From Chloroflexota bacterium (GTDB taxonomy: Bacteria > Chloroflexota > UBA11872 > VXOZ01): 64,000 nucleotides of DNA. Location: NCBI GenBank assembly GCA_964291655.2, contig OZ219802.1, forward strand, positions 192,001 to 256,000, in the 5' to 3' direction. Shown here piece after piece: positions 11,799-27,034 of the stretch (position 1 is its first letter; every line of letters starts with the position of its first letter). The translations under genes were made by a program, and so were the position numbers. The notes beneath the pieces are model-generated. The model made no database searches. It saw only the letters and a program-made list of their open reading frames with translations, and was not told where the DNA came from.

Positions 11799-12105
11799 TA
11801 ATGGGACCTCTGGGTAGGCTCCGTCGCGCTCAGACCGCCGTGCCTGCTGCATCGCGGCATGTTCGATTATGCCACAGTCGAACTTCAGGGATAGGACAGC
11901 ATTCATGCCGAGGAGCGCTGCTCCTCAAGGCTGCCGGTGTCACAAGTCCCGTGCCGGGCCACACACTGCCCAATCTTGAGCCAGCGGCTACACAACAGAC
12001 GCGTAAGTAGGCTTCACGTGAGTAACTCGATGGCACGGGTAGAGTAGAATGGAAGACCAGAGAGCGCATCATGTTTTGAGACTTGCTTAGGGGAAGAGCA
12101 ACAAG

Positions 12106-13218
12106 ATGAGAGCATACGACGTCGCCGTCATCGGCGCCGGCATTATCGGGCTCATGATTGCGCGCGAATTACGCGCTGCCGGGCTGACAGTGGCGCTCCT
12201 AGAGCGGAGCGAGGTCGGCAAAGAGGCGTCGTGGGCGTCTGCAGGCGTGCTCATGAGCAGACCCTATCCCTACGAGAGCATTGTCGACTTTAGGCTGCGG
12301 GTGGAAGGCAGCGAGATGCTGCTGGCTTTGGGTCCCGTGCTTGCAGATGAGACTGGCATCGATATCGAGGCCGTGCGCCACCCTGCTCTCCATCTTGCCC
12401 TTACTGCGGAAGATGAAGCCAACATGCGGGCGCTACAACCGCAGTTAGAAGGGGCATGCCTTGGCTGTGAGTACATCAGCTCGGAGGAGGTTCAGGCACG
12501 CCAGCCAGAGATTACGCTGCCGGTGGCCCTCGGCATGGTGACGTCGTGCGCGAACATCGAGAACCGCCGCTTGCTGCGTGCCTTGGAAGTCGGCGCGCGC
12601 AAGGCGGGAGTCGACATTCTCACCGGCTGCGACGTCCGGGCACTCCAGGTTGAAGGCGGCAAGGTCACTGGCGTGCGCACGGCAAACCAAGACTTCCATG
12701 CCGGAGCGGTCGTAAATGCGGTGGGCAGTTGGGGCGGCACGCTGCAAGGAGCACCTGAGCACATTCCGGTGCAGCCGGAACGTGGGCAAATGCTCTCCCT
12801 CCACGCGGATACCGTTGCGCTCAGACTCCTCATCAACCTGCCGCAATTCATTATCATCCCGCGCAGGAGCGGACGTATCGTCCTTGGTGCGACTACCGAG
12901 AAGGTGGGCTACGACAGGCGCAACACGGCGGGAGCGATCCAGGGCATGCTTCACGCCGCCATCGAGGCTATCCCGGCGCTAGCGGCAGGGACGATCGAGG
13001 AACTGTGGTCGGGATTCCGTCCCTTCAGTCCCGATGGCTATCCCTTGGTCGGACCTTCCGCGCTCCCTGGCTATTACTACGCCGTCGGCCACCACAAGCT
13101 AGGCATTCAACAAGCGCCCATCACCGCTGAGATTGTCAAGGATCTCGTGACTACCGGCAAGACCAGCCGCCCCATTGACCATTGGATCCCCACCCGCTTT
13201 GGAACATCGGCGAGTTGA
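12106..13218 (+). CDS. Glycine oxidase ThiO-like FAD-dependent oxidoreductase
   Basis: IGAGIIG, EASWASAGVL, P.RGQM, WSGFRPFSPDG.P.VG, GH..LGI..AP.TA. Confidence 0.85.
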   Translation: MRAYDVAVIGAGIIGLMIARELRAAGLTVALLERSEVGKEASWASAGVLMSRPYPYESIVDFRLRVEGSEMLLALGPVLADETGIDIEAVRHPALHLALTAEDEANMRALQPQLEGACLGCEYISSEEVQARQPEITLPVALGMVTSCANIENRRLLRALEVGARKAGVDILTGCDVRALQVEGGKVTGVRTANQDFHAGAVVNAVGSWGGTLQGAPEHIPVQPERGQMLSLHADTVALRLLINLPQFIIIPRRSGRIVLGATTEKVGYDRRNTAGAIQGMLHAAIEAIPALAAGTIEELWSGFRPFSPDGYPLVGPSALPGYYYAVGHHKLGIQQAPITAEIVKDLVTTGKTSRPIDHWIPTRFGTSAS

Positions 13219-13232
13219 TCACAAGCGACAAT

Positions 13233-13631
13233 CTAGACCGTCGGCAGCGGATCAGCAGCAGCGAGCTCCAACCAGAACCTGACCGCCTGTTCTCGTTGTG
13301 CGGCAGTTCTTGCCACGCCCTGCCAGTCGCAGCGGGCAGAGTTGTTGACACCCGTCCCGCGCACGGCTAGGTGCACCGGCGACGCCTCCGCTAGACGCAA
13401 CCCCTTCTCCAGCACCTCTTCGACGGTGGCAACAGCGCTTGTTGGCGTGGGCGTTGGCGTCGGCGTAGCCGCAGGGGTGGAAGTTGGTGTCGGTGTTGCC
13501 GTGGCAGTTTGCCTCTCAGCCGCCGACGTCGTCTCTGCTTGCGCTCCGGCCCAAAAGACCATGCCAAACAGAACTGCCATCACCAGTGCGACGGCCAATC
13601 AACTGCCATACTGGGCAACATTACGAAACAT
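13233..13631 (-). pseudogene. Head 3: N-terminal remnant of the large secreted array protein
   Basis: ATG 13631 MFRNVAQYGS, in-frame TGA at 13601-13599, then signal peptide, TP linker and VEEVLEKGLRLAEASPVHLAVRGTG...CDW.G.ART..QRE.AVRFWL; stops early relative to the paralog at 15599-16180. Confidence 0.75.
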
Positions 13632-15093
13632 TCTGTGCCGCAAGAAGCTTCTTGATCGCACAATGAACGGCGCCATTATAGTCGCTCCCAGCTTTATCCC
13701 ATTCCTGCGAAACATCTACATCCCATTCGGTCGTTACATGCCAACTGTCACAGGATTGTCCGAGCAGCTGCGACGTCATCCATCGCGCTCGATCCTGTGA
13801 CGGGTTGGCTGGCACCAGGTTGCCGTCGGCATCTTGGCGTATCAAGTCTCGTCTGTCCGATCCGTCACGGGCAACCGTGAAGAGCGCGGGGGGCATCATG
13901 TCCCTGGTATAGTTGGTTCTGGGTGCAAAAAGGGTGAATACGGCGATGCGGGTGCCGTTGGGCGACCACGCAGCTATGTACGGTACGCCATCCTTCACAT
14001 TCAGTTCCGTTGACAACGCGGTCACCTCCCCATCCTCTAGGCTGACCACACACGCACCTTCTTCACAGGAGTAGAGTATCTGGGTGCCGTCCGGCGACCA
14101 CGCCACCGTGTGTACTTTGGACCTATAATTACTTTGGAATGCCCTGATGTTGTCGGTGATGGTAGTAATCTCTTTCAAGTCAGAGCCGTCGGCTGCCACC
14201 GTGAAGAGCGCTACCCTAACCTTTGCATACCCAACGTATTTTGCCACCACAAGTCTCTGCCCATTCGGCGACCATGAGGCCACGCTTACCACGTCCTCTG
14301 CTATCAGCGTCAATTCCGTCCCGTCTCTCCTCACCGTGTAGAGTATCTTCCGAAACGGTAAGAACGCCCCTTCGTATACTAGAAATGCCAACTTCTCGCC
14401 ATCCGGTGACCAAGCCGGCGGGAAGAGCGCAACGCCTCTGAGTCTTAGTATCGCGTCATCTTCCTCCCCCTTAAGCTGAACTTGTGATTGATTAAGTATT
14501 GGAAGCGTAGGAACCACGTGCCGCAAGTTCGACCCGTCAGCTGCCATCGTGTAGAGTCGCGCACCCAATTCATTTGAGTGGTTGTTAGGGCCCCTGACGA
14601 AGGCGATCTGGTTGCCGTCCGGCGACCACACCGGGTAATGGTCGAAGTAGCCCGAGATCGTGAGACGCTCTTGCCAGCCACCGTACAGATCGAATACGGC
14701 AATGTCATAATCGTACCCCGATGCTCCAACAAAAAACTCGCAGGCGGCGTTGACGATCCGGTACCCATCCGGCGAAATGTCAGCATGGAAACCGTACGGT
14801 AATACGTGCTTGGGTTCCAAGTCAACAAGCATGCGCGCCGCGGTTCCTTCAGTATTCACCTCCCACATTGTTGGGCCTCTCCCATCGAATATGAGATGGT
14901 TGCCATCTGGCGTCCACGCGAGAAAGTGCTTGTAATACACGCTAGGGTAATCGGACATCCGACGTCTACTACAACTGCTGCGATTCTCTTCCTGCTTTCC
15001 TAAATTTCCCTCAAAGGAATTCAATGTATCCTGCTGCGCGCAAGCGACAAGGCCCAAGGCGAGCACCAAGAGTATCGGCCACAATCGTCGCAC
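13621..15093 (-). CDS. Propeller T6: TolB/PD40 beta-propeller lipoprotein
   Basis: GTG start with AGGAG RBS; lipobox LVAC; multiple WSPDG/WSPNG repeats; C-terminal extension past the family ANP end. Confidence 0.88.
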   Translation of the reverse strand: MRRLWPILLVLALGLVACAQQDTLNSFEGNLGKQEENRSSCSRRRMSDYPSVYYKHFLAWTPDGNHLIFDGRGPTMWEVNTEGTAARMLVDLEPKHVLPYGFHADISPDGYRIVNAACEFFVGASGYDYDIAVFDLYGGWQERLTISGYFDHYPVWSPDGNQIAFVRGPNNHSNELGARLYTMAADGSNLRHVVPTLPILNQSQVQLKGEEDDAILRLRGVALFPPAWSPDGEKLAFLVYEGAFLPFRKILYTVRRDGTELTLIAEDVVSVASWSPNGQRLVVAKYVGYAKVRVALFTVAADGSDLKEITTITDNIRAFQSNYRSKVHTVAWSPDGTQILYSCEEGACVVSLEDGEVTALSTELNVKDGVPYIAAWSPNGTRIAVFTLFAPRTNYTRDMMPPALFTVARDGSDRRDLIRQDADGNLVPANPSQDRARWMTSQLLGQSCDSWHVTTEWDVDVSQEWDKAGSDYNGAVHCAIKKLLAAQNVS

Positions 15094-15110
15094 GGCAACA
15101 CTCCTATTTC

Positions 15111-15622
15111 TCAGTCGACAAGTGTCTGATATTGCGCGTAGATTGCTAAGATGTCCATTGGATGCGGTGAACAGTCGTTCTCATCATGTAGATGGCTATA
15201 ATTCCCCGGAGCAATGTCGAAAGTTCCTGCGTCGTAGTTCATCACAGTCTCACTTAAGTGAGGATGCACAATTCCCAAAACATGTCCGGCCTCGTGAACC
15301 AAGTCTTCAGTAATCCCTTCTTCCGTCGTGCTGCACGTATTGAAGCTTACCGTTGGTATGCTCAATGTGCGTATCTCATACGCGCTGCGCCTAATCAAAA
15401 TGTCTCTTGTATAGAAGCACTTTGTAATGATGAATTCAAGAAACGTCTCCTCGTACTCTCTTTCGTTTGCGCACATTAGACCATCAACTCCACAAGCGCT
15501 AACGGCGACAAATCCGGAGAGTTGTAAAAAGTGGATGTTGACTTCGAGTGCCACGATGTGCGCAGCAGAATCGTCATACCTTACGATCTCGTTGTTCCTC
15601 AGATTTTCTTGGGGAAAATCCC
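15111..15622 (-). pseudogene. C6: zinc metallopeptidase C-terminal domain remnant, joined out of frame to head 2
   Basis: SFNTC...LVHEAGHVLGIVHPH..TVMNY...DCSPHPMDILAIYAQYQ; frame stays open upstream of ORF 15554 (GDFPQENLRNNEIV) to the junction near 15622. Confidence 0.75.
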
Positions 15623-16180
15623 CATACGGTCGAAGGCCAGCGTGAGCGTGCTCGGCCCCGCCCCCAGCAGGTACTCGCTCGCCGTGTAATCCACGTAGCA
15701 GGTCAGGAAGAGATACTCAGTAGAAAGCCCGCCCCGCGCGATGGCGAGGAAGTTCGACTTGGCGGTCTCCTTGTACTCTGGATTCAGAGTGTCCAGCGTC
15801 ACCGTGAACAGAATCTCGAGAAACGACGCCGACGGCAGCGTGTCGGTGGACGACAGCCCCAGCCAGAAGCGGACGGCCGCCTCCCGTTGCGCCAACGTCC
15901 GCGCGATGCCCCGCCAGTCACAGCGGACAGAGTTGGTGACACCCGTGCCGCGCACGGCTAGGTGCACCGGGAAGGCCTCCGCTAAGCGCAGCCCCTTCTC
16001 CAGCACTTCTTCCACGGTGCCTGTTGGCGGTAGCCCATGAGCTTGGGCCCCAGCCCCGCACACCGCGCTCAGCAAGACTGCCAGCAGCAGTGCAACACCG
16101 AGCCGACCAGCGCCGGATACTACGCTCGTAATGGCGTTACGCTGCGCGAACGTGCAAAGGGGCATCAACCAAGAGGCCAT
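15599..16180 (-). pseudogene. Head 2: N-terminal part of the large secreted array protein, internally deleted and frameshifted
   Basis: Signal peptide ending AGAQA; VEEVLEKGLRLAEAFPVHLAVRGTG... domain shared with head 3; ends within a few codons of running into the C6 frame. Confidence 0.75.
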
Positions 16181-16239
16181 AGTAGCTTGTCCTAACTCTC
16201 TCCTAAATCTTGTGGGCCAACGTGCCACGCTCCACCACA

Positions 16240-17649
16240 TCACGGTGTCTCCTGTGGCGAGTTGGCTGGCGCAAGCTTGCCGTCGTCGTCCACTCGTACT
16301 AGCGCGCACAAGTCCGATCCGTCACGGTTCACGGTATAGATTTCAGGCGGTATGTTATCGTCCTGATTGCCTGGAACGTACAGAGCAATGCGGGAACCGT
16401 CCGGCGACCACGCCCCAACGCGCCATGCTTTGTCAAGGCGACTTCCAAGTTCAACACGGCGCACACTGCTGCCGTCTCGCCGGACAATGAAGAAGTGACT
16501 GTCAGAGCCAACCAGCAGTTCCAACCCGTCCGGCGACCACGAGACGTGAGAGACTTTCCAGCTCATCCCTTGCGATTCCAGAACCTGTGTAAGGTCAGTA
16601 CTGTCAATACGCACCGTGTAGACGCCAACGGGCTCGCCCTCCTCATCGGCCATCACAAAGGCCAGAAACTCTCCGTCCGGTGACCACGCCGGTAAGACCG
16701 GTGTCCAGAATGACATGAAAATCATCTGCAGATGAGGTAGGTATGTAGAGACCGGTCCGGCGACCCGCGTCCACTCACTCCCGTCGGCCCGGATTACATA
16801 AAGAAAACTCCCCTGATAGGATGCCAAGAGCGCCAAGTATTTCCCGTCCGGCGACCACAGTGGCGGCACATTCCCAACGGCGACGTGGTAGGTTTTCTCT
16901 TTTAATGTAGGTGTTATTGTTGCTGCGCCCTGCTCCAGATCGGACCCGTCCGCCTCAATGGCAACATAGAATTCGCTTTCCTCTCTTAGTGCAGGTGTCG
17001 TTAACGCTACCCCCTGTCGTACATCGGATCCATCCACCGCCATCGTATAAATCTCACCCCACCCAAACGGTCCACTAGCTGACGAGGAGAAGGCGATGCG
17101 CTTCCCATCAGGAGACCATACTGGATAGTCGTCAAAACTATCATTCCGCGTAAGCCGTTGCTTCCTAGTGCCATCCAGGTTGATGACGGCAATCTCGTAA
17201 CCATAGTGGTTCTCGCGTTTCGGATCTACATGCGGGCCTTCCGGTCGAAACTCGCATGACGTATAGACCACCCTCGTGCCGTCCGGCGAGACATCAAAGT
17301 AAAAGCCGTACGGAAAGTTAGACCGAGGAATTCGATTCTCAATCGGATATCGAGGATCTGCGTCCACGAGCGTGCGCAGTTGGGTTCCTTCACGATCGAC
17401 CACCTGTATTGTCCCTACGTAATCGAATAGCAGATACGTGCCGTCCGGCGTCCAATGAATAACCTGCTCGAACACGTACTGGCTGTACCCTTCAAGCATT
17501 GGACCGCAAGGGCCGTCCGACTCTCTAATAAGCCCAAACTTCCCTTTCGTAACCTCATCAGTAGTCTCACAGCCAACAAGACCTAGTGCCAACGCCAACA
17601 AAGCTATCCCCAGAAACATGAGTTGCACTCGATGCACAAGTGTGTGCAT
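16240..17649 (-). CDS. Propeller T5: TolB/PD40 beta-propeller lipoprotein
   Basis: Lipobox LVGC; WTPDG/WSPDG repeats; ends DDDGKLAPANSPQETP. Confidence 0.9.
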   Translation of the reverse strand: MHTLVHRVQLMFLGIALLALALGLVGCETTDEVTKGKFGLIRESDGPCGPMLEGYSQYVFEQVIHWTPDGTYLLFDYVGTIQVVDREGTQLRTLVDADPRYPIENRIPRSNFPYGFYFDVSPDGTRVVYTSCEFRPEGPHVDPKRENHYGYEIAVINLDGTRKQRLTRNDSFDDYPVWSPDGKRIAFSSSASGPFGWGEIYTMAVDGSDVRQGVALTTPALREESEFYVAIEADGSDLEQGAATITPTLKEKTYHVAVGNVPPLWSPDGKYLALLASYQGSFLYVIRADGSEWTRVAGPVSTYLPHLQMIFMSFWTPVLPAWSPDGEFLAFVMADEEGEPVGVYTVRIDSTDLTQVLESQGMSWKVSHVSWSPDGLELLVGSDSHFFIVRRDGSSVRRVELGSRLDKAWRVGAWSPDGSRIALYVPGNQDDNIPPEIYTVNRDGSDLCALVRVDDDGKLAPANSPQETP

Positions 17650-17664
17650 TGTCAATCCTATAAG

Positions 17665-17946
17665 CTACTGCGTCTGATAGAGCGCGAAGATCGCCATGAT
17701 GTCCAGCGGGTGCGGCGAACACTTGGGCAACCTTCCACCATAGCTCATGATTGCGCTATGTATATCCTCATTCGGATGGTGTACTTCTTGGCCCATGTCA
17801 TCTATGCCATCACGAATTCCAAAGTCATGACCCAATTCATGCACCAGCCAACCATACGGGATGTTATGTGTGTCTCTAGTGTTGATGTACGTGTTTACAA
17901 CCGCATCTCGTTTCAGGGCAGTATGTGGCATCCCAAAGTTAATCAC
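17665..17946 (-). CDS. C5: orphan metallopeptidase C-terminal cassette (93 aa)
   Basis: LVHELGHDFGI...HHP...AIMSY...CSPHPLDIMAIFALYQ; start overlaps the T4 stop (GTGA). Confidence 0.75.
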   Translation of the reverse strand: MINFGMPHTALKRDAVVNTYINTRDTHNIPYGWLVHELGHDFGIRDGIDDMGQEVHHPNEDIHSAIMSYGGRLPKCSPHPLDIMAIFALYQTQ

Positions 17947-19376
17947 TGGCCCTCCTCAGGCGGGTTGGCTGGTGCCAGATGCCCATTGGCGTCCAGAGTT
18001 ATCAGGTCGCGCCGGTCTGTGCCGTCTCGGGCAATTGTGTAAAGCTGAGGCGGTATGTTGCGAGAGGCATCGCCTGGCATGTACAGAGCGACTCTTGTAC
18101 CGTCCGGCGACCACGCCACAACGATCCCTGTACTATAATCGTCGTCAGTAAACGGAGCCTTTTGGTCCACCGTGCGCAGACCACTGCCGTTCAGTTGGAC
18201 GAAGTGAAGCCCTTGCTGGGAAGCGACCAGTATCTCTGCTCCATCCGGAGACCATGAGAGATGGGATGCTTCCCATTCTGGCCCCTGCGGTTTCAGCAAT
18301 TGCTCTAAATCGGAGCCGTCGGGACGGACGGTGTAGACACCGGCAGACTTGCCTTCCTCATTAGCCATCACAAATGCAAGGAACTCGCTGTCCGGCGACC
18401 ACGACGGCAATACCAATGGGATGAAGATTTTCTGGTAGAGTTGCGGTAGACTCGGCACACCGATCGTCTCCCCGATCCGCGTCATCTCTGAACCATCGGC
18501 TCGAACCGAGTACAGAATGTGACGAAACGGTAAGTGCTGGCCTTCACTCACCAGGAACACCAAGCGCTCTCCATCCGGAGACCACACCGGCGGCGAGAAA
18601 GCTAGTGCTCCCAGCCATGCCTCTTTGGAATCCTTGTCCTTTTCCCCACGTGCCGTGTAGAACGCGTTCGTTCGCCAGTAGTAGAATCCTTCTGTATCTG
18701 TGCCTTCCCTAATCAACGTGGAGGCGGCCAAGCGCGTGTCTGATTCATCTGCTGCCATAATGTAGAGTTCCTTAAGATGAACACTGCCTCGACCGCGGGG
18801 ATTCGCAATGAATGCGATTCTACTGCCGTCAGGAGACCACACCGGGTAGTGGTCTAGATGCTCATTTTCCGTGAGCCTCAGTTTCCCCGTGCCGTCCAAA
18901 TTGATTGTGGCAATCTCGTAACGAAATCTCTTACGTTCAAATTCATACTCCGGATCTATGTCTATACTTTCCGTTGAGAACTCGCAGGTGGAGTAGACGA
19001 TGCGTGTGCCGTCCGGTGATACGTCGGCGTGGAAACTGAACCGTGCTGCGTGTCTAGGATTAGCGTCTACGAGCATATGGACCCAACGGCCCTCGCTATC
19101 TGCTGCCCAGATTCCTTGCCCTCTTAAAAGACCATACTGATCCGGGAGGAATGCTACTGGCACATAGTTGAACACTAGCTGGTTGCCGTCCGGTGTCCAC
19201 TCCAGGAAAAGTTCCTGATGCCCAGAGTCAAAAGGATCAAAGGATGGACCGCACTGATAATCGTACTCGGCAACAACTGACTGACCATCTTCACTGCAAC
19301 CGGCAGTTGCTAGAAGAAGCACCACCGCCAATAGCCCTGCCGTCGCCGACCACATCCGTCTCATGCCGACCCACAT
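17943..19376 (-). CDS. Propeller T4: TolB/PD40 beta-propeller lipoprotein
   Basis: GGAGG RBS; lipobox TAGC; WSPDG repeats; ends ANPPEEGQ. Confidence 0.9.
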   Translation of the reverse strand: MWVGMRRMWSATAGLLAVVLLLATAGCSEDGQSVVAEYDYQCGPSFDPFDSGHQELFLEWTPDGNQLVFNYVPVAFLPDQYGLLRGQGIWAADSEGRWVHMLVDANPRHAARFSFHADVSPDGTRIVYSTCEFSTESIDIDPEYEFERKRFRYEIATINLDGTGKLRLTENEHLDHYPVWSPDGSRIAFIANPRGRGSVHLKELYIMAADESDTRLAASTLIREGTDTEGFYYWRTNAFYTARGEKDKDSKEAWLGALAFSPPVWSPDGERLVFLVSEGQHLPFRHILYSVRADGSEMTRIGETIGVPSLPQLYQKIFIPLVLPSWSPDSEFLAFVMANEEGKSAGVYTVRPDGSDLEQLLKPQGPEWEASHLSWSPDGAEILVASQQGLHFVQLNGSGLRTVDQKAPFTDDDYSTGIVVAWSPDGTRVALYMPGDASRNIPPQLYTIARDGTDRRDLITLDANGHLAPANPPEEGQ

Positions 19377-19392
19377 GTTCTACCTCCCGTGT

Positions 19393-19668
19393 CTACCGAG
19401 TCTGATAGAGCGCAAATATCGCCAAGATGTCCGCCGGGTGAGGGGAACAGTCGGGATCATCATGCAAGACTGTCTCGTCTGGCTGGGGTCTACCTTCATA
19501 ACTCATAACGGATCCCGCGATTGTGGGGTGGTGAATAAGCTGCCCGGCTCCATCATTACCAGTTCGAACCCCCAGAGCATGACCCGCTTCATGCACCAAC
19601 GAGCTGTAGGAATAGTTGTAATCATCATTCGTATTGGGGCACGGGTTGAAGGAGCCAAAATTCATCAC
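19393..19668 (-). CDS. C4: orphan metallopeptidase C-terminal cassette (91 aa)
   Basis: SFNPCPNTND...LVHEAGHALGV...HHP...SVMSY...DCSPHPADILAIFALYQ; start overlaps the T3 stop (GTGATG). Confidence 0.78.
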   Translation of the reverse strand: MMNFGSFNPCPNTNDDYNYSYSSLVHEAGHALGVRTGNDGAGQLIHHPTIAGSVMSYEGRPQPDETVLHDDPDCSPHPADILAIFALYQTR

Positions 19669-19748
19669 GACCCCTCCTGTGGCGGGTTGGCGGGCGCTAA
19701 GTTGCCGTCATCGTCCAAGCGAATCAGGTCGCGGCGGTCCGTGCCGTC
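19577..19748. repeat. Cassette-junction direct repeat, copy A
   Basis: Near-identical to 21097-21268 and 22708-22879; 31-bp identical core tcattcgtattggggcacgggttgaaggagc at 19625-19655. Confidence 0.88.
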
Positions 19749-20906
19749 ACGGGCAATTGTGTAAAGCTGAGGTGGCTCACGGTTGGAGAATCTCCTGCTG
19801 ACGAACACTGCAATCCGCGAGCCGTCCGGCGACCAGGCTACTTGGCGCCAAGCCTCCGGGTGCCCCGCAAACTCGAAACTGCGCAAACCTGTGCCGTCCG
19901 CTTGAACAATTAGAGCCTGCTCTCCGGAAACGATGAGTAACTCTGAACCGTCCGGAGACAGCGCGATCTGTGTGACGTTCCATTCTGCTGATTGTGGCGC
20001 CAGCACCTGTTGCATATCCGTACCGTCAGCCCGTACCGTGTAGATCCCGATTGCCTTATCTTTTGCGCCGTCTTCTTCCCATTCGCCTGATTCAGCATCG
20101 ATTTCGCTCGCCCGCGCAAACGTGAGAAACTCCCCGTCCGGCGACCACACCGGCGGGACAACCGCCTCGGCAATGCGCGTCAACTCCGTCCCATCTGTGC
20201 GCACTGTATACAATACGCGGCGATAGCCTACCCTCTTCACGCCTTCGCCGACCAGAAACGCCAAGCGTTCTCCATCCGGTGACCACACCGGCGGCGCTAA
20301 GTGAATTCCGCCCACTTCCTTCGTCTCGTTCGAACTCTCCCGCAGCGTGGATGCCATTACCAACCCCTGCTTGTTCGATTCGACCGCTGACATCGTGTAG
20401 AGCACACTACTGTAACCTTCACTAATGAATGCAATGCGGCTGCCGTCGGGCGACCATGACGGCACACTATTTGTGCCGGAGTCCTTTGTGAGCCGTTGTT
20501 GCCCGGTACCGTCCAAATTGATGACGGCGATCTCATATTCGTGCACGGGCTTCCCCGCCCTCAGCACGGTAAACTCGCACGTGGCATAGACGACCTGAGT
20601 GCTATCCGGCGACACGTCCGCGTAAAAGCCAAATATTGCACCTAGGGGGTCGGGGGTTGCAAGCTCCCACAACTGGGTTCCCTGCGCGTCCACCGCGTAA
20701 ACTGCTGATTGGTTATCGAATACGAGATGGGAGCTGTCCGGCGTCCAGTGGAGGAAATGGTGGGGGTAAAACGCGCTATAGTTGCGAGAATGAACCGAGC
20801 AAAGGCTTTGTCCATCAGAGACTCCATCCGAAGGCAATGACCCGCATCCGGTAAGACCCAAAGTCAGTGCCATTAGACCAAGTAATGTCAAGATACGCCG
20901 TGGCAT
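19665..20906 (-). CDS. Propeller T3: TolB/PD40 beta-propeller lipoprotein
   Basis: Lipobox LTGC; WSPDG repeats; ends DDDGNLAPANPPQEGS. Confidence 0.9.
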   Translation of the reverse strand: MPRRILTLLGLMALTLGLTGCGSLPSDGVSDGQSLCSVHSRNYSAFYPHHFLHWTPDSSHLVFDNQSAVYAVDAQGTQLWELATPDPLGAIFGFYADVSPDSTQVVYATCEFTVLRAGKPVHEYEIAVINLDGTGQQRLTKDSGTNSVPSWSPDGSRIAFISEGYSSVLYTMSAVESNKQGLVMASTLRESSNETKEVGGIHLAPPVWSPDGERLAFLVGEGVKRVGYRRVLYTVRTDGTELTRIAEAVVPPVWSPDGEFLTFARASEIDAESGEWEEDGAKDKAIGIYTVRADGTDMQQVLAPQSAEWNVTQIALSPDGSELLIVSGEQALIVQADGTGLRSFEFAGHPEAWRQVAWSPDGSRIAVFVSRRFSNREPPQLYTIARDGTDRRDLIRLDDDGNLAPANPPQEGS

Positions 20907-20921
20907 AGTCCTTGTTCTCCA

Positions 20922-21188
20922 CTAGGGTCCTGTTTGATAGATTGTATAGATCGCCATGATGTCCAATGGGTGCGGGGAGCAGTCCGGTTCAACTACGCCG
21001 GTTACCGTGGAGTAATTCATGATCGAGTCAGTAATGGAAGGATGACCTTGAAGTCTGGAGTCTGCCGCCTTCTTAGATGCTGCACGAATCCCAAGTGCAT
21101 GGCCCGCTTCATGCACTAGAGAGCTATAGGGATTGTTGTAATTGTCATTCGTATTGGGGCACGGGTTGAAGGAGCTATAATTCATCAC
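20922..21188 (-). CDS. C3: orphan metallopeptidase C-terminal cassette (88 aa)
   Basis: SFNPCPNTND...LVHEAGHALGIRAASKKAAD...GHP..SIMNY...DCSPHPLDIMAIYTIYQ; overlaps the T2 stop. Confidence 0.78.
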   Translation of the reverse strand: MMNYSSFNPCPNTNDNYNNPYSSLVHEAGHALGIRAASKKAADSRLQGHPSITDSIMNYSTVTGVVEPDCSPHPLDIMAIYTIYQTGP

Positions 21189-21268
21189 GACCCCTCTTGT
21201 GGCGGGTTGGCGGGCGCTAAGTTGCCGTCATCGTCCAGGCGTATCAGGTCGCGGCGGTCCGCGCCGTC
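21097..21268. repeat. Cassette-junction direct repeat, copy B
   Basis: 31-bp identical core at 21145-21175; spans the T2 3' end through the C3 HEAGH codons. Confidence 0.88.
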
Positions 21269-22513
21269 AGGAGTAACAGTATAGAGTTGCGGTGGGGGGA
21301 CATCGCCTGGTGTAAAGATTGCGACACGCGTGCCGTCAGGAGACCACGCCGCAGCGTGGGGGGTGATCCATGCGACTTCACTTTCGATCAACACTACCTC
21401 TCCGCTCGCCCAGTCGATGATACATGCAGCACCATCCTCACAGGAATAGAGTATCTGCGTCCCATCCGGCGACCACGCGAGGACGGGTACCGAACCATTG
21501 AAGGGAAGTCCCCAGCGAAGCCAAGCCAGACTGATAATGGTAGTGATGAACTGCAGGTCGGAACCGTCTGCCGCCAGGGTGTAAAGCCCTACATCATCCC
21601 CGGCAATCTTCGCCACCGCCAGCCGTTGCCCGTCCGGCGACCAGGCGGGCACACTAGCCACTTCCTCCGCAAGTAAGGTCATCTCTGAGCCGTCGGCTTT
21701 CACCAAATACAAGTCCCTCATGAAGATACTGAAGTGATCGGTATTAACTTGGAAGGCTAAGCGCTCCCCATCTGGCGACCAGACCGGCGGCGCCAGGGTC
21801 ATCCCATGCTTGCCGGGCGGCACCACACGGTGCACGTCCGAGCCGTCCGCCGCCATGGTGTAGAGCGCCATTCCCTCTGGTGCATAGTAGTACTCCCGCG
21901 TGGAGAGGAAGGCGACACGGCTGCCGTCCGGCGACCACACGGGATAGTGGTCGAGGCGTGGATTCCTGGTGAGCCGACGCTGCCCTGTGCCGTCTATACC
22001 GATGATGGCCACTTCGAAGTTGAAATCTATCTGCTCTGGATTCTGTTGATGTGGCGGGAAGGGATACTCACAGCTTGCATAGACAAGCTGTGTGCCGTCC
22101 GGCGATACGTCAGCATGGTGACCGTACTGGGACTCGCGACTGGGATTAGCGTCGACGAGCAACTCCAAGCGGCTGCCTGCTGAGTCCACCAGCCAGATAC
22201 CGGTGAAGATGTTCCAGTATCTCTGACTTCCTCCTGCAAAGTAGTTGAATACCAAGTGCGCGCCATCCGGCGTCCAGGCGAGAGAGATCTTACCTTCACC
22301 AAGGTTGATCGAAAACCCCAACGGACCACAGGGATAGCTGCCAATGTCGGATATGAAGTCTTCCGGGGTAGGCGAGGGCGCCACCGTTGGCGTACTGATC
22401 ATATCCGCCTCCTTCGTTGACCGCATAGCCCCCGGCTGCTGCTGACAGCCGACAAGCCACAGTACCAGCACCGCTAAGAGCCTCAATTGTGCCAACCTGC
22501 CTCGTAGCATCAT
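21185..22513 (-). CDS. Propeller T2: TolB/PD40 beta-propeller lipoprotein
   Basis: ATG 22513 (MMLRGRL), lipobox LVGC-QQQP; WSPDG repeats; ends ANPPQEGS. Confidence 0.9.
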   Translation of the reverse strand: MMLRGRLAQLRLLAVLVLWLVGCQQQPGAMRSTKEADMISTPTVAPSPTPEDFISDIGSYPCGPLGFSINLGEGKISLAWTPDGAHLVFNYFAGGSQRYWNIFTGIWLVDSAGSRLELLVDANPSRESQYGHHADVSPDGTQLVYASCEYPFPPHQQNPEQIDFNFEVAIIGIDGTGQRRLTRNPRLDHYPVWSPDGSRVAFLSTREYYYAPEGMALYTMAADGSDVHRVVPPGKHGMTLAPPVWSPDGERLAFQVNTDHFSIFMRDLYLVKADGSEMTLLAEEVASVPAWSPDGQRLAVAKIAGDDVGLYTLAADGSDLQFITTIISLAWLRWGLPFNGSVPVLAWSPDGTQILYSCEDGAACIIDWASGEVVLIESEVAWITPHAAAWSPDGTRVAIFTPGDVPPPQLYTVTPDGADRRDLIRLDDDGNLAPANPPQEGS

Positions 22514-22529
22514 GGTTGCATCCCTTTCG

Positions 22530-22799
22530 TTAGGATCCGATCTGATAAATTGCAAAGATCGCCATAATGTCCAACGGATGCGGGGAACAATCCTTCTCAT
22601 TGACCAGCATAAGCTTCCGATTGTAATTCATAACGGAGTCAGCGATTGAGGGATGACCCTGGAATTCGGGGTCTGCCGCCTTCTTAGAAGCTGCACGAAG
22701 CCCGATGGCATGACCCGCTTCATGCACCAACGAGCTCTTGGGATAGTTGTAATCATCATTCGTATTGGGGCACGGGTTGAAGGAGCTATAACTCATCAC
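22530..22799 (-). CDS. C2: orphan metallopeptidase C-terminal cassette (89 aa)
   Basis: SFNPCPNTND...LVHEAGHAIGLRAASKKAAD...GHP..SVMNY...DCSPHPLDIMAIFAIYQ; overlaps the T1 stop. Confidence 0.78.
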   Translation of the reverse strand: MMSYSSFNPCPNTNDDYNYPKSSLVHEAGHAIGLRAASKKAADPEFQGHPSIADSVMNYNRKLMLVNEKDCSPHPLDIMAIFAIYQIGS

Positions 22800-22879
22800 G
22801 GCCCCTCCTGTGGCGGGTTCGCTGGCACTAAGTTGCCGTCATCGTCCAGGCGTATCAGGTCGCGCCGGTCAGTACCGTC
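22708..22879. repeat. Cassette-junction direct repeat, copy C
   Basis: 31-bp identical core at 22756-22786. Confidence 0.88.
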
Positions 22880-24106
22880 CGGGGCCAAGGTGTAGAGATG
22901 TGGTTCCGGATCAGGCCTGTAGATTGCAATCCGGGAGCCGTCCGGCGACCACGCCGCAGCGTACGGAAAGAACCAAATAAATGGACTATCTTCCACCAAT
23001 GCCGTTACCTCTCCGCTCGCCAAGTCAATAAGGCATACCCCATGCTTGCAGGAGTAAACCAGTCGCGTGCCGTCCGGCGACCAATTCACAGTGGGTATTG
23101 TTTCCGAGAAGGGAGGCCCAGCCTTCATAACTTCCCGCTCGAAGATGTTCGTGACGAGTTGGTGGTCGGTACCATCAGCCGCTAGGGTGAAGAGTCCCAC
23201 GAAGTCGTCAGTATACTTTGCTACCGCCAGCCGCGTGCCATCCGGCGACCAAGCGGGCACACTGACCACCTCTTTCGCCAGCAGAGTCATCTCCGTGCCG
23301 TCGACCTTCACCGCGTACAAGTCCCTCTGGAGGTAGTAGGGGTCTGCGGTATTCACTTGGAATGCCAACCGTTCTCCGTCCGCCGACCACACCGGCGGCG
23401 CCAGGGTCAACCCATGCGGGTGGGGCTGTGTCACGCGCTGTTTTTCTGAGCCATCCCCCGCCATGACACTGAGCCTCAGATACTCATAATGGGGCTCAAG
23501 GAAGGCGATGCGGTTACCGTCGGGAGACCAGACCGGATAGTGGTCGAGGCTCCGGTTCTCCGTGAGCCGCTGCTGCCTCGAGCCTTCTAGAGTGACAACG
23601 ACCACTTCATAGTCAAAATCCTCCCGCTCCGGAACTTGCTTTCTGTAGGAGAATTCGCAGCTTGCATACACAAGCTGGGTACCGTCCGGCGAAATGTCTG
23701 CGTGGTTTCCGAACATGGAACCCTGACCGGGGTTAGCGTCAACGATCAGGATTACGTGGCTGCCCGCAGCATCCACCCGCCAGAAAGCCGTATGATACGG
23801 AATTTCCCCCGACCCGTAGTAGTCCGCTGGCCGGTAATTGAACACCAAATGCGCTCCATCCAGTGTCCAAGCGAGCACGAGCCTATCCATACCAAGGTTA
23901 TAATCAATCCAACCGAACGGTCCGCATGAATAGCTCCTCTCGACATCGAAAACCCTTTCACCTGGGGTCGGCGAGGGTACCACCGTTGGCGTACTCGTCG
24001 GTCCCACAATTACTGGCCGAAGGTTGGCAGGCTGCTGCTGGCAGCCAACGAGAACCAGTGTTAGCACTGCCAAGACTCCGAGACGCGGCAGCGATGTGCG
24101 TGCCAT
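22796..24106 (-). CDS. Propeller T1: TolB/PD40 beta-propeller lipoprotein
   Basis: ATG 24106 (MARTSLPRL), lipobox LVGC-QQQP; WSPDG repeats; ends ANPPQEGP. Confidence 0.9.
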   Translation of the reverse strand: MARTSLPRLGVLAVLTLVLVGCQQQPANLRPVIVGPTSTPTVVPSPTPGERVFDVERSYSCGPFGWIDYNLGMDRLVLAWTLDGAHLVFNYRPADYYGSGEIPYHTAFWRVDAAGSHVILIVDANPGQGSMFGNHADISPDGTQLVYASCEFSYRKQVPEREDFDYEVVVVTLEGSRQQRLTENRSLDHYPVWSPDGNRIAFLEPHYEYLRLSVMAGDGSEKQRVTQPHPHGLTLAPPVWSADGERLAFQVNTADPYYLQRDLYAVKVDGTEMTLLAKEVVSVPAWSPDGTRLAVAKYTDDFVGLFTLAADGTDHQLVTNIFEREVMKAGPPFSETIPTVNWSPDGTRLVYSCKHGVCLIDLASGEVTALVEDSPFIWFFPYAAAWSPDGSRIAIYRPDPEPHLYTLAPDGTDRRDLIRLDDDGNLVPANPPQEGP

Positions 24107-24122
24107 TATCGCAGAACTCTCT

Positions 24123-24275
24123 TTAAGGTATGGACTGATACAGTGCAGTGGTTGCCATGATGTCAAATGGGGTGGGAGAGCACTTATATTTTCTAAAGCC
24201 CTCTTTAATAACCGTGGATTCCTTGATTCGTGGGTGATGGCGCTCTTGACCTATGCCATCACTTCCGCCGCCAAC
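24123..24275 (-). pseudogene. C1: cryptic metallopeptidase tail not in the ORF track, fused out of frame to head 1
   Basis: Own translation: ..VGGGSDGIGQERHHPRIKESTVIKEGFRKYKCSPTPFDIMATTALYQSIP* (stop 24125-24123); HExxH part missing; junction position approximate. Confidence 0.8.
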
Positions 24276-24571
24276 GGTATGGCCGCCGTCGCCGTCTCAT
24301 CCACCGAAGATCCCCGCGTCTCCACCCGGAAGTTCACCAGGATGTCCGCGCTCGGCGCGCTGCTTGCCGTGATGGTGAAGATCGCCTCCTCGCCCTGCGC
24401 CACCGTCGCCTGCGACGACGCGATCGTCAGCGACGGCCCGCTCGACTGCGCCTGGGTCGCTACCGCATACACCAGGCTCAACAACACCACCAGCCCAAAC
24501 CCTATCCTAGACCGCCGAGCACCGGGTAATATGCGTTCAATCGAGATCCAAAGCGAAATTGTGCGGAGCAA
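24251..24571 (-). pseudogene. Head 1: signal peptide plus start of a Calx-beta/Ig-like domain, internally deleted
   Basis: Hydrophobic signal ending ATQA-Q; PSLTI...TV.QGE.A.FTITASSAPSADI.VN pattern; ends a few codons after joining C1. Confidence 0.7.
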
Positions 24572-24751
24572 CGCGCGAAAACGAGCCGTAGCGCTTTGCC
24601 CTAACCCTCAATTCGGTTCAGTGACTGTGCCTGCCGCTTCCTGTCCAGGCCAGCACCTGTCGTCCTCTTCACCGCACTGCTTGGTTCAGCCTGACAGGTC
24701 GATACTGATAGTTTCTTACTTGTCCAATACATACATGTTGCTAGTTACGTG

Positions 24752-24781
24752 ACTCTATCATTGGTCTTATTGTATTGTCAA
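24752..24781 (-). promoter_or_regulatory. Sigma70-like promoter upstream of the array
   Basis: TTGACA-18 nt-TAGAGT with a TG extension, in an AT-rich intergenic region. Confidence 0.55.
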
Positions 24782-25037
24782 CTCCATAAACTATGTGATA
24801 TATACGTACTTTACTTGTGAAAATACTGTGGGGTATCAGCAGGCACTCCATCAGGTAGTGGCTATAGGTACACTAGCCGCATATTCCCATCCATGAAAGG
24901 CATGCCTGCGAATTCAATGACTTTACTAAGCCAAAAGCATCAAGATTCAGACGGTCTTGACAAATTAAGCACATGACGGCCGTGACAATACACGGCCGTC
25001 ATGGCGTCAATGAACTTGGGAGTGTAGTCTGGTTGGT

Positions 25038-26285
25038 TTAGTCGGGCAAGCCAAAAACGCGGGTGTCGGGCTTGAAGACAGCCCAAGCAAACCAGAAGTG
25101 GTTGCCGTTTACGATGGACTGCAGTTGCTTGCCGGTCAGCGGTCCTGCGATCGCGCGACCGAGAACGTTCCACTGCGATTGGGTTTCCGTATCCAAGATT
25201 TCACCGTCGTCATTCACTTGAAACTTCAGCGTTGCGCCGTCGACCACCGGCGCGAAAACACCGGCGGCGCCAATGTCTGCACCTGAGAATGGAGATATCG
25301 CGCCGGGTTGGTGAATTACCACAATCGGCTCGCCGCCGACGGAATCTTCCACTACCCGCTGCTCTGCCAGCACGTTGAAGGGATAGGCGGCATCTTCGCC
25401 ATTCAGCGACACCGTGACCACTCGTTCCATGGCGGGCAGGCGACCGTCGACCTCCTCGAAGAAGAGGAAGGGCGATGAAGAAATGTCGTCATAGCCGGGA
25501 TACGGGTTTCTGCCATACGATCGAGGATAGCCGGTTTCACGCGAGAGCACCTGACCTTCAGGATGCGTGCTGCGGAAGTCTGCGAAAGAAACTATCGACG
25601 CCGGCACCGTGGTTAGTTTCTTGCCGGTAAGTTCACCCACGATGGCCGTTCCCGTAATCTGCTGCCACCAACTCTCCGTCTGACGGTCGTACATGATCAA
25701 GTCGCTGTAGCGCAAATTGCCGCTAACACCAAAGTCATACGTGGTGCCATCCAGGCGCCGGTCGAAAGCAATCGCGGTATTGCAGAGCGGGCAGAACGTC
25801 ACCGTGACCGGCATCCCGCCGATAGTGTCGTTCACAATCTCGTGCCAAACCAGAATTTCAATCGGATAGGCCTTCGCCTCTCCGTTGACTTCAACCACTA
25901 CAACGGGTTTGCGATCATCAAGGTATGCCGCGGCTTCATCGGACGTGATGAAGGCCGGATCGTCAATTGGGGGGATGCCATCTTTGCCGGGACCGCCGGA
26001 GCTGATTTCGCTGAGCGGCACGCTATGCTTGGAAAAGTCAGTCTTCCACCCAAATGTGGAGAACTGGAGATTAGCGGGAAGCTCCGGTGAGGGAGAGGGT
26101 TGCACAGCCTCTGCTTCAGGAGTAACGGCGGGCTCGACTTCCTCTACGATCGTGTCCTCCGGCATCTGTCCGCAGGCCACTGCGGCTACGATAGCGACCG
26201 ATGCGGTGCCGGCCGCTAGCAGAATGTTGCGTCGACTCAAGAGGTTGCGCGGGGTCCTGTTCACTGGCTGACTTCTCCTATTCAC
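25038..26285 (-). CDS. DUF3179-family protein, Tat-exported lipoprotein
   Basis: SRRNIL twin-Arg, VAC lipobox; GGPGKDGIPPIDDP, HEIVND, FCPLCN, MYDRQTESWWQQ, FWFAW. Confidence 0.88.
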   Translation of the reverse strand: MNRRSQPVNRTPRNLLSRRNILLAAGTASVAIVAAVACGQMPEDTIVEEVEPAVTPEAEAVQPSPSPELPANLQFSTFGWKTDFSKHSVPLSEISSGGPGKDGIPPIDDPAFITSDEAAAYLDDRKPVVVVEVNGEAKAYPIEILVWHEIVNDTIGGMPVTVTFCPLCNTAIAFDRRLDGTTYDFGVSGNLRYSDLIMYDRQTESWWQQITGTAIVGELTGKKLTTVPASIVSFADFRSTHPEGQVLSRETGYPRSYGRNPYPGYDDISSSPFLFFEEVDGRLPAMERVVTVSLNGEDAAYPFNVLAEQRVVEDSVGGEPIVVIHQPGAISPFSGADIGAAGVFAPVVDGATLKFQVNDDGEILDTETQSQWNVLGRAIAGPLTGKQLQSIVNGNHFWFAWAVFKPDTRVFGLPD

Positions 26286-27034
26286 GTGTCCTGTTGCGCG
26301 CCATGGACGATATTCTCTAGCGCAGAACGGTCTGTCAGAGTAATCCGTTTACGTCCAATTTCGAGATAATTCTCATGCTTCAGCTTGTCCAACGTCGCCG
26401 TTACGGTCTCGCGATAGACGCCGAGCATGTCCGCCAAGTCCTGATGCGTAAGCCCCTGAATCTCATCGGAATCCTCTGCGAGCCGCAAAAGCAAAGCCGC
26501 CGTGCGGGCCGGCATGGTCAAGAATGCGCTCTCGTGCAGGCGCTCTTCGGCTTCTTGAAGTCGCTCGTTGAGCACTTGAATGAGGCGCAAGCCGATCCTG
26601 GGATAGGTGACGAGGATGCGTTCCACCTCAGTGCGGCCCAGTGTGCACAATGTTACGTCATCCACTGCTTGGGCCACCGAATCTCCCATCGCCTGCCCAA
26701 AGAGCGGCATTTCTCCGAAGAATGTATCCGGCCCCAGCATTGCCAGCACGAGCTTGCGGCCTTCAAATGATATGCGGTAGAGCTGAACGCGGCCCTCTTT
26801 GATAAGAAAGAGCATCTCTCGGTTATCTTCGGGCGTGTGAATTACCCCTCCCTTGTTTATGTGCACCGTCGCGCTGGAATGGTCTATCTTACTAATTTCA
26901 TGCGGCAGAAGGTCGGCGAAGATTTCAATCTTGGAGATGCAGGAAAGCGTATGGTTGTAAAGTCCCAATCGACCGTTCTGCCGTAGGCTTGTCCGCAGTT
27001 CCTTTGATCGAGAGGATACTCGGTAGTTTCTCAT
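26282..27034 (-). CDS. Crp/Fnr family transcriptional regulator (start uncertain)
   Basis: cNMP domain (LIKEGRV, FFGEM) and HTH LTHQDLADMLGVYRETVT. Confidence 0.92.
   Translation of the reverse strand: MRNYRVSSRSKELRTSLRQNGRLGLYNHTLSCISKIEIFADLLPHEISKIDHSSATVHINKGGVIHTPEDNREMLFLIKEGRVQLYRISFEGRKLVLAMLGPDTFFGEMPLFGQAMGDSVAQAVDDVTLCTLGRTEVERILVTYPRIGLRLIQVLNERLQEAEERLHESAFLTMPARTAALLLRLAEDSDEIQGLTHQDLADMLGVYRETVTATLDKLKHENYLEIGRKRITLTDRSALENIVHGAQQDT

Follow-up and report, generated by a model that had tools for sequence, protein, structure and literature searches.

Divergent propeller lipoprotein genes outlast their peptidase neighbors in a variable Chloroflexota island and may encode orphan surface inhibitors

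Potempins are lipoprotein inhibitors that are co-transcribed with secreted peptidases in Tannerella forsythia; they specifically inhibit the linked peptidase and guard the surface of the producer (PMC9890683). Tsi1 of Pseudomonas aeruginosa is an immunity protein shaped as a partial propeller of the DPP-IV type (PMC3391265), and in Vibrio cholerae type VI secretion system (T6SS) clusters, effector displacement leaves arrays of immunity genes behind (PMC5361080). Here we analyze an array of genes on the minus strand of a 64,000-nucleotide stretch from a marine-type Chloroflexota bacterium (contig OZ219802.1, positions 192,001 to 256,000; this whole stretch is the window, and coordinates count from its first letter). 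The array, which runs from 24781 to 13233, is built from pieces of a three-gene module, M-T-H. By our model, M would be a Sec-secreted protein of 600-1665 residues with FN3 repeats and a C-terminal metzincin-like zinc peptidase domain of ~245 residues, T a membrane-anchored PD40 propeller lipoprotein encoded directly downstream of M, and H a secreted protein that starts with a conserved domain and carries leucine-rich (LRR), cadherin and FN3 repeats. No M or H gene of the array has come through whole, deletions and recombination having truncated or removed them all; the six T genes are intact, each lying behind a former M 3' end. We propose, with a probability of about 0.5, that the variable island holding the array is the decayed remains of two M-T-H copies and that its T genes encode orphan surface inhibitors of M.

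The closest parallels are the orphan immunity arrays of the V. cholerae T6SS and the orphan modules of Rhs and contact-dependent inhibition (CDI) systems cited in the same account (PMC5361080). In those arrays, as in M-T-H loci, a full-length effector gene has its protective gene directly downstream, strings of protective genes each carry a former effector 3' end, and some genomes keep protective genes only; content varies among close strains, and homologous recombination shapes the arrays. Unlike those systems, M-T-H comes without a T6SS, a type V secretion system or an Rhs core, and export apparently proceeds by signal peptide in a Chloroflexota cell. There is also a single metzincin-like effector family here rather than many toxin folds, with toxicity and immunity putative; the protective candidate is a PD40 propeller lipoprotein of ~450 residues; and a third conserved gene, H, closes the module. 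Polymorphic toxins (PMC3482391) share with M the organization of a multidomain secreted protein with a C-terminal active domain, which we see in relatives, this genome having no full M. They also share the orphan cassettes, here a C-terminal fragment plus T, of which the window holds five together with the M6-T6 pair. In contrast to the Rhs, CDI and MafB toxins covered there, M shows no exchange of unrelated C-terminal families on a constant N-terminal body.

Three further pairs resemble M-T more narrowly. The KLIKK peptidases and potempins likewise set a secreted peptidase beside a co-oriented surface lipoprotein, and potempins do to their peptidases what T may do to M. Potempins, however, are beta-barrels of 98-132 residues with genes upstream of the peptidase, whereas T is a large propeller with its gene downstream, and orphan arrays, a feature of T, are not described for potempins in the abstract of that report (PMC9890683). 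In the Tse1/Tsi1 pair, an exported, all-beta immunity protein resembling the DPP-IV propeller blocks a secreted hydrolase, but Tsi1 is a small partial propeller and Tse1 a T6SS amidase, with neither sequence relation to M-T nor arrays (PMC3391265). Mtz and Tim of Listeria monocytogenes are also a secreted metzincin and an adjacent lipoprotein on the cell envelope; there, Tim folds like a TIMP and the metzincin cleaves it, and the locus is a single phage-derived one under CI/Cro control, with no arrays or propeller (PMC8235301). TolB of the Tol-Pal system is, like T, an exported envelope protein with PD40 propeller repeats. Unlike TolB, T is a lipoprotein with 0 to 25 matches per genome that lies beside M rather than in a tol-pal operon, and TolB was rejected as an identity for T (T3 reaches 77.8 bits with NCBIfam model TIGR02800, whose cut-off is 343.15). 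No description of a metzincin paired with a PD40 lipoprotein was found in the open literature searched, in line with the sequence-only reading, which had not recognized the pairing as a described system. PADLOC assigned no family to the five proteins submitted, and NCBIfam gave no above-cut-off match for the proteins tested.

We asked how this arrangement is distributed among relatives by searching 61 genomes of the same class with the open frame of M6, the sixth M piece of the array. Matches were found in 21 genomes, including 10 of 16 in the window's own genus and 10 of 16 in a second family, and in 0 of 28 genomes from four other families. Thirty loci were annotated with profiles built from the T, peptidase C-terminal (C) and head pieces of the window. 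T follows within 400 nt of 35 of their 37 full M domains, the two misses lying at the ends of fetched stretches or contigs; H comes next after 21 of those 35 T genes; and T also follows 39 of the 41 M-fragment matches. A second set, which overlaps partly with the first, came from a pattern scan of one genome per GTDB species and comprised 78 loci, all in records titled as Chloroflexota, Dehalococcoidia or Tepidiformaceae metagenome-assembled genomes. Here T follows 55 of 62 full M copies (the remainder being two locus edges, three H without T and two T beyond the gap limit) and 37 of 43 M fragments. The linkage of peptidase and propeller that had been predicted for relatives was thus recovered in both sets.

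In the relatives, the M domain stands at the extreme C-terminus of open frames of 585-1665 residues with FN3 repeats. The N-terminal bodies of these proteins differ in length and repeats, while all 99 full copies in the two overlapping sets (37 plus 62) end in the same M family, the C-terminal domain never being another fold. Arrays start with a full M and continue with units of C-terminal fragment plus T; such fragment-plus-T arrays are common, and many of the orphan fragments are only 25-45 codons long. The likeness to Rhs, CDI and MafB loci that had been drawn from the window alone therefore stands in part: relatives do carry a full-length effector, then a propeller, then fragment-propeller arrays, but the C-terminal domain is always of one family. 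One locus (L105:3776-6022) has an M fragment (profile positions 59-237) and a T propeller within a single open frame of 749 codons, which may be a natural M-T fusion. The M-T-H architecture is well supported, and a function for it can be proposed; the three-gene module appears to be specific to Dehalococcoidia-class Chloroflexota.

The M domain combines a zinc peptidase signature with unusual spacing. Across 38 aligned copies, C111, C125, D148, C170, H183, G186, H187, G190, H204, C226, P228 and D232 are invariant, and at least 90% of the copies have E184. The extended metzincin zinc motif HExxHxxGxxH/D is present in M; its canonical form, HExxHxxGxxH, occurs in M6 (HEAGHVLGIVH) and two relatives, and G014 reads HEGGHVLGIGH. 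In most members, m2-m5 of the window among them, ~10-35 additional residues separate the third His from the Gly, an atypical arrangement. The variable segments of M adjoin the zinc site, consisting of this insert (0 to ~35 residues) and a loop after the Met-turn. A Met-turn downstream of the third zinc ligand is a hallmark of metzincins; the Met-turn-like motif of M has the consensus SVMxY, with SVMNY, SIMNY, SVMSY, AIMSY and TVMNY as the window variants, and model confidence in that segment is ~50. Pfam matches of the M pieces were all sub-threshold (DUF4953, 18.3 bits against 24.2; M10, 14-15.7 against 24), as was the match to the NCBIfam archaemetzincin model (16.4 bits, cut-off 145). In a profile search against the PDB, M found MMP-14 as its best hit (E 0.006 over 25 residues), archaemetzincin and serralysins also matching weakly. 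These matches and motifs suggest that the M domain is metzincin-like, not assigned to a known family. A full-length M copy in genome G003 (L015:10515-11291) reads IHKSGH instead of VHExGH, so that Lys replaces the catalytic Glu with the zinc ligands kept; it may be a pseudo-peptidase variant.

T1-T6 (413-490 residues) were described in the sequence-only reading as intact, mutually divergent PD40 lipoproteins, and this was borne out. All six match Pfam PD40 (E 1.6e-18 to 1.5e-28), all six have a lipobox-like L-x-[GA]-C after a hydrophobic stretch (read by eye from the translations), and their pairwise identity is 39-58%; Pfam DPPIV_N also matches T. Within the genus, the number of T matches ranges from 0 to 25 per genome, and the four genomes with none (G001, G002, G013 and G016) have no M match either. 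Three solitary T-family genes lie elsewhere in the genome of the window (G000 C2:1988351-1989709, 2606819-2607847 and 2609066-2610088), with no M or H profile match in the 8-10 kb around them. G008, a genome without an M match, also holds a close copy of T.

The third family accounts for what had been called heads. These had been taken for the N-terminus of the peptidase, but in M-T-H units the head domain begins the gene after T, so that it is the N-terminus of a third gene; full M proteins instead consist of a signal peptide, FN3 repeats and the peptidase. Head2 and head3 are accordingly truncated copies of this separate family, H. The H domain, of ~170 residues, shows the strongest conservation in the module, well above that of M and T (43-89% identity to the window copy across 51 sequences of the class), and is followed in H proteins by LRR, cadherin and FN3 repeats. 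It has no Pfam or NCBIfam match and no usable match in the protein atlas, and a Foldseek search of the PDB with its structural model (predicted local distance difference test score [pLDDT] 82.1, core ~90) returned nothing significant (best E 0.48).

The gene order and coordinates first given for the array hold. It comprises 15 open frames, all co-oriented and tightly packed, with each m stop 9-19 nt before the next T start, and forms one tight operon-like unit. In transcription order, all on the minus strand, it opens with an N-terminal remnant of M1 (24251..24571), an open frame of 106 residues with a signal-peptide-like start and ~70 further residues before its stop. This remnant has no Pfam match at E ≤ 1 and no match to the H profile, so the kinship of this first head with the other two was not upheld. 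The m1 fragment (24126..24296; C profile positions 29-85 of 87, E 4e-10; M profile 183-241) supplies the last ~57 codons of the peptidase domain in a different frame; M1, internally deleted, thus amounts to 106 N-terminal and 57 C-terminal codons. T1 follows at 22796..24106 (PD40 E 1e-23; lipobox-like LVLVGC), its probable ATG start being at 24106 although the listed open frame extends to 24166. Next come m2, an 89-codon C-terminal peptidase fragment (22530..22799; HEAGHAIG...GHPS...SVMNY...CSPHPLDIMAIFAIYQ), and T2 (21185..22513; PD40 E 1.5e-28), with a probable start at 22513, 16 nt past the m2 stop. The 88-codon m3 (20922..21188) precedes T3 (19665..20906; 413 residues; PD40 E 1.7e-20), which is 67% identical to a T of genome G005 that likewise sits behind an m fragment, and the 91-codon m4 (19393..19668) precedes T4 (17943..19376; 477 residues; PD40 E 4e-23). 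The 93-codon m5 (17665..17946; HELGHDFG...HHPN...AIMSY...CSPHPLDIMAIFALYQ) and T5 (16240..17655; 471 residues; PD40 E 1.6e-18) complete the run of fragment cassettes. Profiles and motifs identify m2-m5.

H2 (15599..16309), recognized by the H profile, keeps a signal peptide and most of the H domain but ends right after ...AFDRMG, a point past which intact relatives run on in alignments. The M6 open frame (15111..15716; 201 codons; M-profile positions 67-240) keeps HEAGHVLGIVH and TVMNY and has lost the N-terminal part, the FN3 body and the signal peptide. H2 and M6 overlap out of frame, which indicates a deletion joint between an H gene and the M gene of the next module. T6 (13621..15093; 490 residues; PD40 E 2.1e-22) has a C-terminal extension, and H3 (13233..13598; 121 residues; H profile E 5e-52), the second truncated H gene, is cut at the island edge. 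The six C-terminal pieces had been described as variants of one zinc peptidase C-terminus. This fits the five longer ones, m2-m5 and M6, in which HExxH is followed by a further His, the Met-turn-like motif S/T-[VI]-M-[NS]-Y and a CSPHPxDI(M/L)AI..YQ tail; m1 keeps the tail only.

T has survived selectively. In the window, T frames are open in six cases of six (413-490 codons), compared with 0 of 2 intact M genes and 0 of 2 intact H genes, and a query with M6 found no further M match anywhere in the 3.47-Mb, 2-contig genome. The array thus has no full-length effector gene, which bars it from serving as an expression site fed by silent cassettes, and what remains is an island of propellers only. 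Together with strict adjacency to M, an accessory distribution and diversity within the array, the survival of T fits an orphan cognate inhibitor. In such a model, T would be the cognate surface-anchored inhibitor, or 'immunity' protein, of M and would shield the cell's own envelope proteins, and the retained divergent T genes would serve as orphan inhibitors against M variants secreted by neighboring relatives. Homologous recombination would let arrays gain, lose and rearrange units, with conserved blocks as its sites: the 3' end of T together with M as far as HExxHxxG, and likewise the H domain. By analogy with the systems above, an inhibitor or immunity role of T is plausible.

Alternatively, T might be a working partner or a substrate of M, whether as a membrane dock keeping M (and H) at the cell surface, a gating propeller or a lipoprotein that M cleaves and sets free, with paralogues expanded for interaction with a host or matrix and the m fragments left as by-products of duplication. 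M, T and H are all predicted to be exported and are co-located, and the FN3, LRR and cadherin repeats on M and H are typical of adhesion. PD40 propellers act as substrate filters with peptidases of the DPP-IV family, matching the DPPIV_N hits on T, and weak M-T co-variation (below) fits a generic interaction. In Listeria, the secreted metzincin cleaves and releases the neighboring lipoprotein (PMC8235301). However, a partner of M alone should decay after the loss of M, yet T outlasted M and H here in a genome with no M elsewhere, and T-only arrays recur in G004, G005, G010, G011 and G015. The 39-58% identity within the array also looks more like diversified specificity than a generic dock. On balance, we consider a partner or substrate role rather unlikely.

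Several results weigh against T as an orphan inhibitor of a metzincin-like M. A Foldseek search of the PDB with the AlphaFold model of M (pLDDT 71.4) returned nothing significant (best E 0.94), so that the metzincin fold of M rests on motifs and sub-threshold profile matches. Correlation between M and T distances was weak in a Mantel-type test over 63 pairs (Spearman 0.33 for the N-terminal part of the domain and 0.20 for the C-terminal part) and was -0.12 and -0.27 for the nine pairs whose T is closest to the window type. The closest m2 relative from outside has a T3-like rather than a T2-like T linked to it, and an outside counterpart with elevated similarity of the downstream T exists for only two of four window cassettes (m3-T3 and m4-T4). 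Three of the 62 M genes in the scan have H directly after M and no T (loci L068, L102 and L113). Zhang et al. (2012) state that no beta-propellers had turned up among immunity proteins (PMC3482391), and the FN3, LRR and cadherin repeats would fit interaction with a host matrix as well as bacterial conflict. Finally, the orphan m fragments have ratios of nonsynonymous to synonymous substitution (dN/dS) of 0.12-0.35 and their own Shine-Dalgarno sequences and start codons; at three of the four junctions, AGGAGG stands 6-9 nt upstream. Complex prediction for the intact M domain of G005 with its own T scored 0.00, a 'no answer' that speaks neither for nor against binding. The starting observation is confirmed in its architecture and not in its head assignment, and the interpretation is supported in part, tight M-T pairing finding no support in the co-variation tests.

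Low dN/dS, the pattern of codon positions and the ribosome-binding sites indicate that the m fragments are not plain debris. Over their last 26 codons, mean pairwise differences at codon positions 1, 2 and 3 are 0.38, 0.26 and 0.57, against 0.41, 0.28 and 0.63 in full genes. Together, these features could mean that the fragments arose recently from full genes, that they act as recombination cassettes, or that they are expressed. If expressed, the short m frames might be small zinc-binding proteins (active-site helix, third His, Met-turn and C-terminal helix) translationally coupled to the T upstream. T stop and m start overlap as GTGATG at 22799, 21188, 19668 and 17946; besides the Shine-Dalgarno sequences and this TGATG stop/start overlap, found together at three of four junctions, all four frames are open with HExxH, third His and Met retained, dN/dS is low, and m2-m4 share one truncation point. 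Yet the fragments have no signal peptide, whereas the parent domain, with its four invariant Cys, is secreted; the entire N-terminal subdomain is absent; fragments in other arrays are far shorter; and the low dN/dS may date from the time within full genes. We hold out little prospect for this explanation. The AGGAGG is itself encoded by the last T codons (...PPQEG), a textbook translational-coupling context before remnant-like m frames.

Recombination has left a recognizable signature at the cassette junctions. Block 1 (22708..22883; 177 bp, 91.0% identical to block 3) spans the last ~28 codons of T1 and the first ~31 of m2, to HEAGHA.G; block 2 (21085..21269; 185 bp, 90.3% identical to block 3) joins the T2 end to the m3 start; and block 3 (19565..19753) joins the T3 end to the m4 start, giving blocks of 177-185 bp among cassettes 1-3 on the minus strand. 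The m part of the blocks covers the first ~31-35 codons. The cassettes themselves are old, with a mean pairwise DNA identity of 40-77% along the unit and synonymously saturated bodies, whereas the synonymous difference (pS) is 0.07-0.39 inside the blocks against 0.58-0.79 in the bodies; for T2 and T3 it is 0.14 in the T tail and 0.74 in the body. Stretches of 90-91% identity between otherwise diverged cassettes are, as judged from sequence comparison, a signature of recombination. H2 and H3 share a 112-bp block that is 88% identical.

Such blocks invite comparison with Rhs and CDI orphan modules, in which case the m-T units would be silent cassettes that recombine into a full-length M expression gene and swap its C-terminal catalytic half together with T. 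Conserved blocks of ~180 bp, recently homogenized, do flank each variable unit (the rest of m plus the T body), and the fragments' dN/dS and full-gene-like codon-position pattern would be expected of such cassettes. The position equivalent to m4 in the G005 array is held by a full-length M gene of 585 residues, and arrays of relatives begin with a full M. But a cassette would find no full-length M to enter in this genome, many fragments in relatives, at 25-45 codons, are too short for the variable loops, and the C-terminal domain is never swapped for another fold. A related strain, moreover, recombined inside a T body and between H copies, not at the junction blocks. Silent-cassette use is, in our estimate, improbable.

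Comparison between genomes shows that the island turns over. It spans 13248..25046 (11.8 kb, array on the minus strand), as delimited by blastn against the closest relative, G008, which matches 12000-13247 at 96.6% and 25047-26400 at 96.1% with nothing between. The left flank is a ThiO-like FAD oxidoreductase gene (12106-13218, plus strand) and the right flank a gene for a 415-residue protein (25038-26285, minus strand). All 17 genus genomes carry both flanking genes, and in 12 of these, G008 included, the two lie 93-575 bp apart, leaving an empty site. The distance is 5.7-12.2 kb in G000, G005, G007 and G012; the flanks enclose M-T in G005 and in G007, and M-T-m-T-H in the case of G012. An M-T-H module of G014 is on the contig of one flanking gene. 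At the strain level, a contig of run X5 (from another study, 93-96% identical) runs straight from 15975 to 13383, two points at homologous codons of H2 and H3. The join skips 13384-15974 and thus marks a related strain without M6-T6. Another contig of that strain links m2 to a T that turns T3-like from 20631 onward. Short joints, whose sides measure 20-35 letters, were disregarded, since repeats or other organisms probably explain them. Empty sites, other content and this strain show that cassette content varies among relatives. A mobile element was rejected as an identity for the island, there being no integrase or transposase among its listed open frames, for which no dedicated search was made.

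These comparisons also bear on whether the array is a non-functional, decaying duplication or an artefact of assembly. Every large gene of the island is broken, and the short-read contigs of X1 and X2 (two runs of one study) break at three spots of ~80-100 nt, all of them junction blocks, none of which is bridged. Elsewhere these contigs, from two samples, tile 12000-26500 with 0 differences, although they may stem from the window's own source and so are not independent. Against decay or artefact, six frames of 413-490 codons have stayed open although their synonymous divergence is saturated, the genome is in two contigs, and the same architecture occurs in dozens of other genomes; at 40-77% DNA identity, the cassettes are not collapsible repeats. 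We give this explanation hardly any credence.

If T does inhibit M, beta-propellers would gain their first peptidase inhibitor or immunity protein of such a kind, and Dehalococcoidia-class Chloroflexota, for which, to our knowledge, there is almost no genetics, would gain their first defined effector/immunity-like conflict system, M-T-H. This would also account for a large, fast-evolving family that varies so widely in copy number within one genus, and would provide natural, specific inhibitors of MMP-like enzymes. More tentatively, and with considerable doubt on our part, M-T-H could be a Sec-dependent effector/immunity system of Chloroflexota in which the PD40 propeller lipoproteins make up a new class of inhibitors specific for metzincins. 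The unit of exchange would be the C-terminal catalytic half (third zinc ligand, Met-turn and variable loops) plus the propeller; relatives in dense communities would fight or recognize one another through secreted peptidases and hoard orphan inhibitors; and H would be a delivery partner or a protected target. Should T prove to be a partner instead, M-T-H would still be an undescribed, widespread surface system, with an H domain that has no recognizable fold relative.

Upstream of the array lies the promoter proposed in the sequence-only reading (24752..24781, minus strand), TTGACA-18-TAGAGT with an upstream TG and an AT-rich leader. It is promoter-like as a consensus match only, sigma-70-like matches being no commoner in the region (four) than in shuffled sequence (6.3 expected). 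Just downstream of the 415-residue flanking gene, a hairpin at 24972-25003 with a 13-bp stem (nine G-C pairs) and a T-rich tail is likely, from its predicted structure, to be a terminator separating that gene from the leader of the array.

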